From positions 1 through 64,000 of IMG/VR virus record IMGVR_UViG_3300039008_000120: 64,000 bases of DNA, one strand, 5' to 3'. The stretch's first letter is position 1. The number at the start of each line of letters is the position of its first letter. The notes under the pieces are model-generated. The model was not told where the DNA came from and searched no databases. It was given only the letters and a program-made list of their open reading frames with translations. This DNA is from a virus. Of this stretch, positions 1 through 64,000 are shown in pieces. The position numbers and the translations under genes are program-made.

Positions 1-33
1 AATAATAATAATAATAATAATAATAATAATAAT
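1..33 (+). repeat. (AAT)11 trinucleotide repeat encoding poly-Asn
   Basis: Eleven perfect AAT units read directly at the window start, in frame with the CDS. Confidence 0.9.
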
Positions 34-270
34 ACAGTTATTGCTAATGTTGATATGTTTCAAAAATTAACAATCGGAACAAAGGTTGTTAATCAAGATG
101 GGAAAGAGTTAGCATGTAAATATATGTCACTCAATGAAGGTTTAGTTAGAAAAGAAAGTGATAATACAATGGTACTCAATCAATTGCAATTAGATGGCAG
201 GGTTACATCAATCACTCTGTCGGTTGAGGAAGTTGAAATTTTAAAAAAATTTATAAAAAAGGAATATTAA
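1..270 (+). CDS. hypothetical protein, 5' end outside the window; the visible start is a poly-Asn run
   Basis: The frame of track ORF 55..270 stays open back to nt 1 (AAT x11, then TVIANVD-MFQKL...). Stop TAA at 268-270. Confidence 0.5.
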   Translation, partial: NNNNNNNNNNNTVIANVDMFQKLTIGTKVVNQDGKELACKYMSLNEGLVRKESDNTMVLNQLQLDGRVTSITLSVEEVEILKKFIKKEY

Positions 271-271
271 A

Positions 272-439
272 ATGTCAATTGAATATAAAATAAATAAAAA
301 CAATATCTCCGTAAAACTAAGCGGTATGGTGGTTGGACATATCAAACCGGTTCTAGGTGGTTATCAATACTTTCCCAAGGGTTCAAAAACAGGGGGAGAA
401 ATATATAAAACAATTGAAAAAGTTAAAAAAACATTATAA
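272..439 (+). CDS. small hypothetical protein (55 aa)
   Basis: ATG at 272 lies 2 nt after the previous stop. Open frame MSIEYKINKNN...KVKKTL ends at TAA 437-439. Below the track length cutoff. Confidence 0.4.
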   Translation: MSIEYKINKNNISVKLSGMVVGHIKPVLGGYQYFPKGSKTGGEIYKTIEKVKKTL

Positions 440-446
440 AAATTCA

Positions 447-475
447 TTGACAGATTGAAGGTGTATTGATATTCT
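447..475 (+). promoter_or_regulatory. sigma70-like promoter (TTGACA-N17-TATTCT)
   Basis: TTGACA at 447-452, exact 17-nt spacer, TATTCT at 470-475. It lies 39 nt upstream of the 514 ATG. Confidence 0.6.
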
Positions 476-513
476 TAACTTAACTTAAAATTTTAAATTA
501 TGGATATCAAAAA

Positions 514-948
514 ATGACAACATTAAACGAACTACAAAACAAGGCTATCTCAACACTAGGGAAATCTATAGTTTCAGCTAATATTATCAAGGTTGGTGAT
601 ACTGATTTTGATAATATTAAACTGTTGGATGGGATAAATCTTTCATATTACTATAGGTTGACTAAGGCTATAAGAAACTATAGTATTTGGACTGAGTCGA
701 ATCACATTGAAAATCTTGTAATAAACGTTTCAAATGTAAGTGATTTTGAATTTAAAATAGTTGAGGGAATACCTGTATTGAGTATTGGTAATAACCTCAA
801 ACATGTTATCATTCGAAATCTACAAATAACAACAAACAGTCAGGATAATTTCTATAACAAACAAAACGATGCATGGTGTAACATGTGTCGTTCTGAAAAA
901 TGCGAACACATAATGTCAACTTTTATAAAAATTGCAAGTCAAAATTAA
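514..948 (+). CDS. hypothetical protein
   Basis: 144-aa track ORF downstream of a consensus-like promoter. No family recognised. Confidence 0.6.
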   Translation: MTTLNELQNKAISTLGKSIVSANIIKVGDTDFDNIKLLDGINLSYYYRLTKAIRNYSIWTESNHIENLVINVSNVSDFEFKIVEGIPVLSIGNNLKHVIIRNLQITTNSQDNFYNKQNDAWCNMCRSEKCEHIMSTFIKIASQN

Positions 949-960
949 AAAGGAAAAAAC

Positions 961-1245
961 ATGAAAACAATGACAGAAATTGACAAAGTTACAGCAAGAT
1001 TACATTATCCCGAAATATTCAATAAATCTGCATTGATTAATCCCGGTGTGATAACTGCATATAATGCCTTCCAAAAACACCGTGAACTATTACCCGAAGA
1101 ATATCGGGAATATTTCAACCCCAATTATGAGTTTGACAACCCTGCACTAGATGAATGTTGGGTACTAACAGTAAAAAAAGATTTATTTGTATTTGGTGAT
1201 GGTGATCTCACATGCTCTAATAATTTATACATATTAGAAATGTGA
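961..1245 (+). CDS. hypothetical protein
   Basis: 94-aa track ORF, tightly packed, RBS AAAGGAAAA upstream. Ends in TGA. Confidence 0.6.
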   Translation: MKTMTEIDKVTARLHYPEIFNKSALINPGVITAYNAFQKHRELLPEEYREYFNPNYEFDNPALDECWVLTVKKDLFVFGDGDLTCSNNLYILEM

Positions 1246-61709: not shown

Positions 61710-61722
61710 TGTATTTGTACCT

Positions 61723-62775
61723 TTATCGTTGTAAATATTTAAATAAATTTTCACTATCACTTTCACCCATTAAGCCATATTGCTTAATGAATTGCTGTAT
61801 TGAATTAATTTGAATTTTATTATCTTTAGGATAAATAATATCATCAAAAATCTTATTTAATTTAACTTTATCTAATTCACTAATAATATCATCGTTGAAA
61901 ATATTACAAATATATAAGTTTCTCCTGAACTCTTTTTCAAATTTACTCAATATTTGGGGTGTTTTAAATTTCTTAGAAAAATATTGTAATATTGAATCAT
62001 ATGTAACATCAATATCATCCAAATAACAATCTCTAAAAAAATTTTCAAAAATAGTCTTCGATTTTATACCAAATGGCTTTTTAATGTTATCTGAACTATC
62101 ACCCATTAATGCTTTATATAAAATAAATTCCGATATATTTTTTAAATACGGAAAATCTATTATATCACATATACAATCAATATTTTTTATTAAAAAATTT
62201 TTTGAACCTTTATTGGGTGCAGTATATTTATAAATTACATCAGTATTGTTTTCATCAAACGCCATTAGATAATCTTTATCATGACTAATCACTAAACTTT
62301 TTTGTTTAATATTATTATCTTTTAATTTTTTAAGAAAATATCCAATTACAAAATCTGCTTCATTTGTTACCAGATTTGATGGAACAACAACTTCATTGAG
62401 TAAACCAAATATTTCGGTTAACAATAAGCAATTATAATCATATAAGTTTTTTGTATTCCAATCAAATACTCCTTTGGTTCGTTTTGATTTACTTCGATTT
62501 AGTTTATATTCTGGATATATTTTTTTTATGTTAATAGATATTCCACCATCAAATGTAAATATAAACTTACTTTGTGGTAAAACTTGTTTCAAGTTAATAT
62601 AAAATTTTATAGTTTCAATGAATGGAGTTATATTTATTCGATCCATTGATAAATTTTTTTCTAAATTCAAATAGGGAGTAATTGTCAATGAACTAACATC
62701 AACAAAAACATAATTGTATTTATTATACAAAGCTTTTTTATTATTAATAAAATTCAAAATTTCACAATTACTCAT
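61723..62775 (-). CDS. FEN / 5'-3' exonuclease (T4 RNase H-like)
   Basis: 350-aa track ORF. VFVDVSS, YPEYKLNR, NEADFVIGY, SHDKDY and GDSSDNIK motifs. Confidence 0.7.
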   Translation of the reverse strand: MSNCEILNFINNKKALYNKYNYVFVDVSSLTITPYLNLEKNLSMDRINITPFIETIKFYINLKQVLPQSKFIFTFDGGISINIKKIYPEYKLNRSKSKRTKGVFDWNTKNLYDYNCLLLTEIFGLLNEVVVPSNLVTNEADFVIGYFLKKLKDNNIKQKSLVISHDKDYLMAFDENNTDVIYKYTAPNKGSKNFLIKNIDCICDIIDFPYLKNISEFILYKALMGDSSDNIKKPFGIKSKTIFENFFRDCYLDDIDVTYDSILQYFSKKFKTPQILSKFEKEFRRNLYICNIFNDDIISELDKVKLNKIFDDIIYPKDNKIQINSIQQFIKQYGLMGESDSENLFKYLQR

Positions 62776-63122
62776 ATTAACTCCGATAATTTTTTAACAA
62801 CTATTGCATTAGTTGACAAATGGTTGTTATAATTAATTTTTTTTATCTTCTTTAAATTTAAATTAGTATTAATTACTTTTTCTGCAAATAATGCATCTAT
62901 TGTCAAATTTGATGCATTAATTGTATTAACTGAAATAAAATAATTTCTTTTTTTATAAGTAATTTTTTCTATTATTTTTTGTTCAATGAAGTGATTGATA
63001 ATTTTTTTTATTTTATAATCAGTAATGTTATCATTTTCAAAAAGACTAACCAAATCATCTTTAGTTTCTGATAATGATTTAAATTCTTTTATTTCTTCAA
63101 AAAAAAATTTATATTTTTCCAT
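62772..63122 (-). CDS. hypothetical protein
   Basis: 116-aa track ORF, first gene of the minus-strand run. Confidence 0.55.
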   Translation of the reverse strand: MEKYKFFFEEIKEFKSLSETKDDLVSLFENDNITDYKIKKIINHFIEQKIIEKITYKKRNYFISVNTINASNLTIDALFAEKVINTNLNLKKIKKINYNNHLSTNAIVVKKLSELI

Positions 63123-63258
63123 TAATTTTTTCTCACTTTTAATATTATTTAATTAATTCAACTAATATTAAAAAATGAAAAAGTCAAATACTTTTTTCAT
63201 TTTTTTCCCCTGTTAATAATATTTAAATTTATTTATTTATAATTAATATAAATAATAT

Positions 63259-63288
63259 ATAAATAATAATATTTATATTATTATTTAT
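63259..63288. repeat. perfect 13-bp inverted repeat with a TTTA loop
   Basis: ATAAATAATAATA-TTTA-TATTATTATTTAT within an almost pure A/T intergenic region. Confidence 0.8.
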
Positions 63289-63296
63289 ATATAAAT

Positions 63297-63337
63297 ATAT
63301 ATAATATATATCCCTTTAGGGGATATATATTATATAT
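63297..63337. repeat. 18-bp inverted repeat with a TTTA(G) loop
   Basis: ATATATAATATATATCCC-TTTAG-GGGATATATATTATATAT. Confidence 0.8.
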
Positions 63338-63486
63338 ATTATTAAATATACTTAATTCTTAATAATATTTTATATTAATTAAATATATTTAATTATAATT
63401 ATTATTAAGTATTATTAACAGACACACACACCCGTGGGTTTTTTTGTGATATATATATAATTAAAATATAATTTTGGAGTTGTTAG

Positions 63487-64000
63487 ATGAGTTCACAAAT
63501 TGATTGTTACTTTGGAATTAGACCAACTGGTAATAAGCTTCACTTAGGTCACTTAATGACACTTTTTGATATGTTTGATTTTATAGTAACAAACATAAAT
63601 CACGTTAATAATATATATATTCTTTTAGCTGAAATCCATGCTCAAATATCAAAAATTTCAATAGAAAAAATTAAGTTAAATTCTAAAGATTTACATATTC
63701 AAATTTTAGAAGTATTTAATATATTTTTGAGAATGAGAAATATATCTCCTGAAAAAATTAAATATTTAAATAATAAAATTAAATTTATATATCAGTCTGA
63801 TTTTGAAACTCATGTTAATATCACATATACATATTTACCACTTGTAAACACAAATAAAGTATTAAAAAATCCAATTTTCAAAAACAATAATAACAACAGT
63901 GTCGGCTTTTTAATTTATCCAATTTTACAAACGTTTGATATTATATTATACTCACCAAACAGCAAAGATACTGATCTTTATGTTTTTGTGGGTGGTGATC
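63487..64000 (+). CDS. trpS: tryptophanyl-tRNA synthetase-like class Ic aaRS, 3' end outside the window
   Basis: ATG at 63487 with a GGAG RBS, open to the window end. GIRPTGNKLHLGH (HIGH), ILLAEIHA, ISPEK, FIYQSDFETH, IFK, SVGFLIYPILQTFDIILY and VFVGGD align in order and spacing with bacterial TrpRS: G.QPSG..TIGN, CIVDQHA, IDPEK, F.QS.VPEH, QFK, AGL..YP.LMAADILLY and VPVGEDQ. Confidence 0.7.
   Translation, partial: MSSQIDCYFGIRPTGNKLHLGHLMTLFDMFDFIVTNINHVNNIYILLAEIHAQISKISIEKIKLNSKDLHIQILEVFNIFLRMRNISPEKIKYLNNKIKFIYQSDFETHVNITYTYLPLVNTNKVLKNPIFKNNNNNSVGFLIYPILQTFDIILYSPNSKDTDLYVFVGGD

Follow-up and report, generated by a model that had tools for sequence, protein, structure and literature searches.

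What does the codon TAG specify in a phage genome in which it recurs in frame within genes? The question is raised by a 64,000-nucleotide stretch of viral DNA (IMG/VR record IMGVR_UViG_3300039008_000120, positions 1 to 64,000; here called the window), which has a GC content of 26% and belongs to a jumbo phage whose genome spans at least 233 kb and carries T4-like genes for terminase, portal, and capsid. An earlier note on this DNA had read TAG as a sense codon throughout. Because coding density, open reading frame (ORF) continuation, homology across TAG sites, conservation in relatives, and assembly identity agree, we regard it as close to certain that TAG is a sense codon in this amber-recoded phage genome. 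Alignment with homologous genes further indicates that TAG very probably encodes tryptophan, and the full explanation, in which UAG serves as a second Trp codon under a phage-driven switch, is considered likely. The DNA read from this genome amounts to 82 kb (the 64-kb window and 18 kb of flanks, from loci L011 and L013). Other assemblies of the same genome were recovered by exact-match look-up of a window protein, and DNA of relatives for codon comparison was taken from IMG/VR, JGI, and Logan.

When ORFs were called greedily and TAA and TGA were the sole stops, 86 genes resulted, with a mean length of 222 amino acids (aa) and a coding density of 0.895, compared with 103 genes, a mean of 157 aa, and a density of 0.759 under code 11. 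A control in which TGA was read as sense reached 0.768, which is no density gain, and the called genes hold no in-frame TGA, so the genome does not use code 4 (TGA = Trp). The increase in density with TAG as sense is found also in 10 related loci. In-frame TAGs number 72 (about 68 had been traced in the earlier note) and lie in 31 of the 86 genes; sense use therefore stands, but use "throughout" the window does not, since 55 genes are TAG-free. The frame stays open for ≥50 codons after 60 of the 72 TAGs and for ≥100 codons after 52, where 2.1 and 0.06, respectively, would be expected if the downstream sequence were non-coding and the frame closed ∼15 codons past the TAG. The PHROG 2 terminase match and the Protein Data Bank (PDB) match to T4 gp17 both extend across TAG sites.

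Assembly error had been named as something that would refute this reading. Four independent assemblies (two from Logan and two contigs from JGI metagenomes) overlap the window at its two ends (4-10948 and 51723-64000; ∼23 kb) and match it there at 99.9 to 100% identity. Among these four there are 7 mismatches, none at a TAG, and the TAGs in these two regions are not assembly errors because the four assemblies agree there.

The claim that no gene ends in TAG fared less simply. The called genes end in TAA (71) or TGA (15), as claimed, but this tally is partly circular because the ORF caller reads through TAG, and four small ORFs carry a TAG 1 to 11 codons before their end (at 2685, 3925, 15263, and 30166). 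At these sites TAG could be a genuine stop, in which case at most 4 of the 86 genes would be TAG-ended. They could also act as tandem stops: early in infection the protein would end at TAG, and after read-through starts it would run on for a few more residues. The first of the four is as follows.

2677..3081, minus strand: small ORF with TAG (2685) one codon before its TGA.

The TAG-bearing genes include a T4-like (Straboviridae-like) head and packaging module. They are given below with each TAG coordinate as the first base of the codon on the coding strand.

12103..13956, minus strand: large terminase (TerL; T4 gp17-like), 617 aa, 5 TAGs (13866, 13569, 13104, 12855, 12324); matches PHROG 2 (E 2e-22, residues 75-519) and PDB 3ezk (T4 gp17; E 3e-10).
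50779..52659, minus strand: portal (T4 gp20-like), 626 aa, 4 TAGs (52596, 51393, 51234, 51222); PF07230 on its homologues.
26109..27236, plus strand: major capsid protein (gp23-like), 375 aa, 1 TAG (26880); PHROG 138, with a weak match of its homologues to PF07068 (Gp23).
22720..24177, plus strand: protein of the head morphogenesis block, 485 aa, 6 TAGs (22849, 22912, 22939, 23332, 23683, 23854); no family match.
24289..26040, plus strand: acidic scaffold-like protein, 583 aa, 1 TAG (25048); homologue in L003; scaffold-like role suggested by position only, between 22720-24177 and the capsid gene.
17209-18711 and 18855-20543, minus strand: two large fibre-like genes, 500 and 562 aa, 6 TAGs each; full ORFs appear only with TAG as sense; match to PHROG 30390, function unknown.
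35170..38004, minus strand: three genes of 427, 206, and 296 aa with 3, 3, and 4 TAGs; no family match; the N terminus of 35170-36453 is similar to that of 18855-20543.
60939..61709, minus strand: ClpP-like protease, 256 aa, 2 TAGs (61502, 61094); PF00574 (E 1e-25).
21324..22010, minus strand: HD-domain (HD_5) protein, 2 TAGs (21977, 21833); PF13487 (E 7e-20).
53184..54086, minus strand: protein of 300 aa, 2 TAGs (54053, 53570); no family match.
57103..60888: block from ORF calling with five TAG-bearing genes (6 TAGs in total), namely, an APS-kinase-like gene (57103-57642; PF01583 recorded on the same gene in L011), 57763-58521, 58557-59258, 59850-60449, and 60454-60888, plus the TAG-free 59263-59823; homologues in L017, L018, L100, and L101 are also TAG-bearing.

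The counts in the earlier note agree with these for TerL (5), portal (4), 22720-24177 (6), the fibre-like genes (6, 6, and 3), capsid (1), scaffold-like protein (1), ClpP (2), 53184-54086 (2), and APS kinase (1), as do the merged lengths of 617 aa for TerL and 626 aa for the portal. The sole mismatch is the HD-domain gene, with 2 TAGs rather than 1, and this count depends on the start chosen because the first TAG is at codon 12 of the ORF. Family searches back the names given there to TerL (PHROG 2 and PDB T4 gp17), capsid (PHROG 138), ClpP, and the HD domain, and PF07230 on its homologues backs that of the portal; no Pfam or PHROG match was obtained for "gp21-like protease" (22720-24177), "tail fibre," or "FEN-like" (53184-54086), even with W placed at the TAG sites.

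Several lines of evidence favor tryptophan as the amino acid at TAG. First, a homologue search with TerL returned full-length database proteins in which the same columns are Trp in some and Gln in others. In relatives with readable DNA the "Q" sites are TAG codons, and the database translations had used code 15; for two such proteins that were looked up, the locus does not translate to the stored protein. In a codon-level TerL alignment of 10 genomes, columns 237, 279, 307, 318, and 341 hold TGG or TAG only; TAG occurs there 31 times, and codons for Tyr or Gln not at all. Among 22 distant T4-like terminases (22 to 29% identity), W stands at the position of window TAG130 in 20 of 21 and at that of TAG285 in all 22. 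The Trp content of TerL is 1.13% if TAG is ignored and 1.94% with TAG as W, and distant homologues have a mean of 2.17 ± 0.32%.

Second, other genes repeat the exchange. Portal TAG427, TAG480, and TAG484 lie opposite W in 12, 10, and 7 homologues; the capsid TAG is opposite TGG in L003, where one window TGG is in turn opposite TAG; TAG and TGG are swapped at 3 columns between 22720-24177 and its homologues in L001 and L003; and ClpP TAG206 is TGG in L017 and TTT in L018. Capsid homologue fragments in databases stop exactly where the window has TAG or TGG.

Third, an extended alignment was made of window genes and same-genome flanking genes (L011) with homologues in 14 related loci, giving 71 TAG columns. 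Residues aligned with TAG are Trp in 20.4% of cases, as against 1.1% for those aligned with TAC, a genuine rare Tyr codon. Conversely, TAG accounts for 22.5% of residues aligned with TGG, a share of the size seen in true synonymous pairs (Tyr encoded by TAT makes up 55% in TAC columns, and Gln encoded by CAA 28% in CAG columns). TAG also turns up in 26% of the columns with Trp, 2.8% of those with Tyr, and 0.5% of those with Gln. Tested against empirical aligned-residue profiles, the log-likelihoods were −366 for a W-like, −404 for a Y-like, and −510 for a Q-like codon. TAG aligns with conserved Trp, and TAA and TGA are kept as stops, both as in the UAG = Trp code of the Balanophora type.

Three other comparisons did not discriminate. 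An internal codon-frequency test for TGG depletion in TAG-bearing genes was uninformative (0.53% versus 0.62%); the TAG column is variable among distant capsid homologues; and ClpP TAG206 is opposite I or L in solved structures, which any bulky hydrophobic residue would fit. The nucleotide context around TAG showed no notable difference from that of TGG or of all codons.

A candidate for the enzyme that assigns tryptophan to TAG lies at the right end of the window, as the start of a tryptophanyl-tRNA synthetase (TrpRS) gene that the earlier note had overlooked.

63487..64000, plus strand: divergent TrpRS, 5' part (171 of 338 codons), TAG-free, running off the window end; full gene at L011:8273-9289, minus strand.

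The window part is 100% identical to L011, and the translation is P0037. This 338-aa class-Ib synthetase matches TIGR00233 (trpS) at E 2.5e-22 over residues 8-295, and tyrosyl-tRNA synthetase (TyrRS) models match only its catalytic half, more weakly (54.7 bits). All named homologues are TrpRS, the best PDB match by both sequence and fold is 2g36 (Thermotoga maritima TrpRS), and the top 50 PDB fold matches of its AlphaFold model (pLDDT 87) are all bacterial-type TrpRS. As in the T. maritima enzyme, the HIGH (here HLGH) and KMSKS motifs, the Trp-pocket Asp (the invariant D151), and a C-x22-C-x6-C-x2-C motif in the anticodon-binding domain (Cys249/272/279/282) are kept, and the synthetase is predicted from fold and motifs to be a bacterial-type TrpRS of the [4Fe-4S] type. 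In the anticodon-binding domain of T. maritima TrpRS, the Cys motif is the site of a [4Fe-4S] cluster, which has been modelled beside anticodon base C34 (PMC2954223). Unlike that enzyme (identity, ∼22 to 27%), the phage clade differs around the cluster and has ∼14 fewer residues in the C-terminal helical domain; it is 23 to 28% identical to cellular enzymes, and its anticodon-binding domain is altered.

The TrpRS gene is TAG-free and syntenic in all 6 lineage genomes examined, including 276-kb and 180-kb IMG/VR contigs that share the terminase, in the conserved order 5'-3' exonuclease, small gene, TrpRS, glycosyltransferase-9 (GT9), rIIA-like, rIIB. It is a core gene of the lineage. In a more distant phage contig of 12.4 kb (L102; IMGVR_UViG_3300011981_000033), which has a 30% identical TrpRS, coding density rises from 0.69 to 0.80 with TAG as sense, and the association of TrpRS and TAG may reach beyond this lineage.

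The distribution of TAG over the window's genes is uneven. Virion and packaging genes (TerL, portal, capsid, scaffold-like protein, the 485-aa head block protein, and the fibre-like genes) hold 45 TAG and 26 TGG in 5,142 codons, TAG making up 63% of Trp codons. The annotated nucleic-acid genes (homing endonuclease, PNK-like kinase, CCA-adding enzyme, SbcC-like protein, PD-(D/E)XK nuclease, 5'-3' exonuclease, and YopX genes, with a chemoreceptor-like protein counted along) hold 0 TAG and 31 TGG in 5,454 codons (Fisher p = 1e-10 versus virion genes). Among the TAG-free genes and blocks are the following.

38118..47498, minus strand: TAG-free block of 8 genes, 3,009 codons (PNK-like kinase, 708-aa protein, CCA-adding enzyme, SbcC-like protein, others); homologues in relatives are also TAG-free.
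42766..44058, minus strand: CCA-adding tRNA nucleotidyltransferase within this block, TAG-free; PF01743, PF12627, and HD domains; PHROG 2244 (E 7e-80).
4051..12064: TAG-free block of 14 genes, including YopX-domain genes.
9051-11329, plus strand: three or four tandem YopX-domain paralogues, TAG-free; the same genes are annotated as YopX in L013 and L015.
27331..29115, plus strand: homing endonuclease, 594 aa, TAG-free (4 TGG); PHROG 3339 (E 5e-120), DUF7487, and a zinc ribbon.
61723..62775, minus strand: 5'-3' exonuclease-like gene, TAG-free; PF02739 recorded; no TAG in any relative; lies upstream of TrpRS and is oppositely oriented, with a 116-aa gene (62772-63122) between them.

The same division of gene classes holds throughout the lineage: TAG/TGG counts in relatives are 87/35 for TerL and 24/4 for the head block protein but 0/15 for rIIA, 0/8 for rIIB, and 0/8 for the homing endonuclease. 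Recoded blocks are interspersed with blocks in standard code, as in a mosaic. With expression timing taken from gene function, TAG is concentrated in late, structural genes and kept out of early ones, a bias that is characteristic of recoded phages. Just past the right end of the window, the GT9 gene (L011:7045-8286), directly downstream of TrpRS, has 2 TAGs (6 in relatives), and the genes after it (rIIA-like, rIIB, dUTPase, and DNMK) have none.

We propose the following mechanism. Early in infection the host would read UAG as stop, and only TAG-free genes, including those for TrpRS and the CCA-adding enzyme, would give full-length proteins. The phage would then supply a tRNA that has a CUA anticodon and whose gene would lie beyond the 82 kb, and the phage TrpRS would charge this tRNA with Trp. 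This decoding step is one that we infer, because no tRNA(CUA) was found in the 82 kb read. Host TrpRS would be expected to reject U35, and host glutaminyl-tRNA synthetase (GlnRS) would tend to mischarge tRNA(CUA). Bacterial TrpRS charges a tRNA with U35 in its anticodon poorly, whereas GlnRS accepts it well, as in the case of the Escherichia coli su7 suppressor, and the insertion of Gln by 28 of 29 phage tRNA(CUA) in E. coli extract fits this preference. UAG-rich late genes would be translatable only after the switch, which would place a timing lock on virion production, and AT mutation pressure (26% GC) would favor change from TGG to TAG once TAG means Trp. More speculatively, the CCA-adding enzyme and PNK-like kinase may serve tRNA maturation or repair.

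Confidence in the parts of this mechanism varies. That recoding acts as a timing lock on late genes is rather likely; that the phage TrpRS and an unseen tRNA(CUA) form the decoder is favored by a narrow margin. Opinion is evenly poised on a stronger version, in which the TrpRS is anticodon-switched and charges the phage tRNA(CUA) specifically, the two forming a natural pair, orthogonal to the host, by which UAG = Trp is established late in infection; no UAG-to-Trp reassignment outside a plastid, and no such switch borne by a virus, would have preceded it. Because no tRNA gene was found, a variant is also conceivable in which there is no phage suppressor tRNA and a host tRNA-Trp is reprogrammed, e.g., by C35-to-U anticodon editing.

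A number of observations weigh against a phage-driven assignment of TAG to tryptophan. Regarding the amino acid, Tyr-rich TAG columns are about as many as Trp-rich ones, and a BLOSUM sum over TerL alone slightly favors Tyr (60.7 versus 47.9). With TAG = Trp, virion proteins would contain 1.38% Trp versus 0.57% in other annotated genes (2.4-fold); the Trp content of TerL fits that of its distant homologues, and the excess in the other virion proteins is unexplained. The synthetase scores 79.6 bits, below the NCBIfam trpS trusted cutoff of 176.75; as it is divergent and falls short of this equivalog cutoff, equivalent function is not to be assumed. Regarding timing, ClpP, the HD-domain protein, APS kinase, and GT9 are TAG-bearing and not obviously products of late genes. 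Regarding the decoder, the 82 kb yielded neither tRNA(CUA) nor any other tRNA when searched with ARAGORN (default and relaxed settings) and Rfam (gathering threshold), ARAGORN at -ps80 with introns gave noise only, and ∼200 kb of relatives (11 loci, TrpRS and TerL neighborhoods) yielded tRNA-Leu(UAA) and transfer-messenger RNA (tmRNA) but no tRNA(CUA). A pattern scan of IMG/VR for a CUA anticodon loop with a T-loop returned, among the matches listed, unrelated contigs and none on either related contig. No gene for a release factor or a release factor inhibitor was seen.

The RNA genes of the relatives are a tRNA-Leu(UAA) just downstream of the terminase gene in L004 and L006 and a tmRNA gene (tag ADDYALAMAA) in L006; the window has neither.

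L006:5148-5507, L006:6468-6555, and L004:13262-13347: tRNA-Leu(UAA) and tmRNA genes of relatives.

Of the competing explanations, the best placed, although improbable, is that UAG = Trp is the native code of the host and that the phage merely follows it, with no switch. It draws on the lack of a suppressor tRNA gene in the phage DNA read and on the proneness of AT-rich genomes to stop codon capture, as in Balanophora. If TAG were an ordinary host codon, however, its absence from 5,454 nucleic-acid codons, against 45 occurrences in 5,142 virion codons, would be hard to explain, and the same families are TAG-free in relatives; further, the phage keeps a divergent TrpRS as a core gene, and literature searches gave no bacterium with UAG = Trp. 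A scan of GTDB genomes with a phage TrpRS profile retrieved only cellular TrpRS at 22 to 32% identity and gave no clue to the host.

Tyrosine at TAG, with a class-Ib synthetase that is really TyrRS-like, is a shade less probable still. Tyr is the commonest residue opposite TAG (30%), several TAG columns are otherwise pure Tyr, TAG is one mutation from TAT or TAC, and the TerL BLOSUM sum and the weak TyrRS model match point the same way. However, Tyr is equally common (27.5%) opposite TGG, and abundant Tyr is therefore to be expected opposite any Trp codon in these proteins. The invariant-Trp columns, with their 31 TAG, lack TAT and TAC although TAT is 5 times commoner than TAG, the Trp share opposite TAC is far below that opposite TAG, and the likelihood is 37 nats below that for W. 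The synthetase itself matches trpS over its full length and has the TrpRS-specific Fe-S motif, besides the TrpRS identity of its named homologues and top 50 folds.

Glutamine (code 15), as in crAss-like and Lak phages and as assumed by public gene callers, is very improbable here, even though it is the only amber reassignment reported for phages and database translations of these same genes show Q at TAG sites. Every database "Q" that could be checked in DNA is a TAG at a column that is TGG elsewhere, Gln makes up ∼1 to 4% of residues opposite TAG (no enrichment over background), TAG is all but absent from Gln columns, the likelihood is 143 nats below W-like, and two TerL TAGs lie at invariant or near-invariant Trp columns. 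Of the two options for re-calling genes in the earlier note, code 15 and a custom table, the former would mistranslate every site, the aligned residue being Trp and not Gln.

That the TAGs are real stops, through pseudogenes, split genes, assembly errors, or low-level near-cognate readthrough, is barely conceivable: the JGI code 11 annotation does yield separate fragments, but the four assemblies are identical in the window overlaps, frames stay open for hundreds of codons past TAG, terminase and portal homology continues across the TAGs, the sites are TGG in sister genomes, and with 5 to 6 TAGs per essential virion gene a readthrough of a few per cent per site would give essentially no full-length product.

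How, then, does TAG as a probable Trp codon compare with known systems? In recoded phages (crAss-like, Lak, Jade, Agate, and other clades) only TAG-to-Gln and TGA-to-Trp have been reported, a restriction explained by the susceptibility of host GlnRS and TrpRS; suppressor tRNAs occur in only 35 to 40% of them, and TGA-recoded Jade phages carry TrpRS (Borges et al., bioRxiv 10.1101/2021.08.26.457843). As in the phages of that survey, reassignment affects a stop codon that is common in structural and late genes and missing from early ones, and the putative code change gene is in standard code. Unlike in those phages, the codon TAG goes with the amino acid Trp, and the DNA read holds no suppressor tRNA or release factor gene. 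Code 15 has been validated by proteomics in crAss-like phages (PMC9523058), which share with this phage the use of amber as sense (there with a standard-code host) but not the alignment of TAG with Trp instead of Gln.

Reassignment of UAG to Trp is otherwise documented, within the literature searched, only in Balanophora plastids, where it is called exceptionally rare and is decoded by tRNA-Trp(CUA). The plastid code of Balanophoraceae is NCBI table 32. That system resembles the present one in having UAG as Trp, UAA and UGA still as stops, and an extremely AT-rich genome. In contrast to the phage, it is a plastid that has lost release factor 1 (RF1) and imports a nuclear tRNA, and its reassignment is genome-wide and not stage-specific; here a virus has its own TrpRS, and TAG is used in some genes only. 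For phages and bacteria, full-text searches brought up no description of TAG-to-Trp, but subscription journals were mostly outside the search and an earlier report is possible. Phage recoding, the bias to late genes, and TrpRS in TGA-recoded phages are known already; TAG-to-Trp in a phage would be new.

The lineage breaks the pattern of TAG-to-Gln and TGA-to-Trp and suggests that phages can bring a synthetase for an assignment that host enzymes would not support. A natural TrpRS:tRNA(CUA) pair orthogonal to bacteria would be directly usable for genetic code expansion; the known phage-derived TrpRS/tRNA pair works on UGA.

The lineage is rare, with only 41 relatives of the capsid protein among 1.84 billion representative proteins, and megablast against GenBank phages found no relative. 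Public records of its proteins carry two kinds of error. Logan and ENA translations put Q at TAG (e.g., P0074, the portal with 4 Q for W), and JGI code 11 calls end at TAG (e.g., P0076, a portal cut to 373 aa, and P0091, a piece of the capsid protein); the proteins concerned are P0001-P0009, P0074, P0076, P0086-P0088, and P0091. Q at conserved Trp, or fragmentation, weakens homology detection for the whole lineage.

Two of the TAG-free genes are of separate interest. The homing endonuclease gene directly follows the capsid gene and is TAG-free although the rest of the module uses TAG; a mobile element with a need to work in standard-code contexts would fit this pattern. The chemoreceptor-like protein has a full chemoreceptor architecture, which is unusual in a phage genome.

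31460-33418, minus strand: TAG-free 652-aa protein with dCache, HAMP, and methyl-accepting chemotaxis signalling domains.

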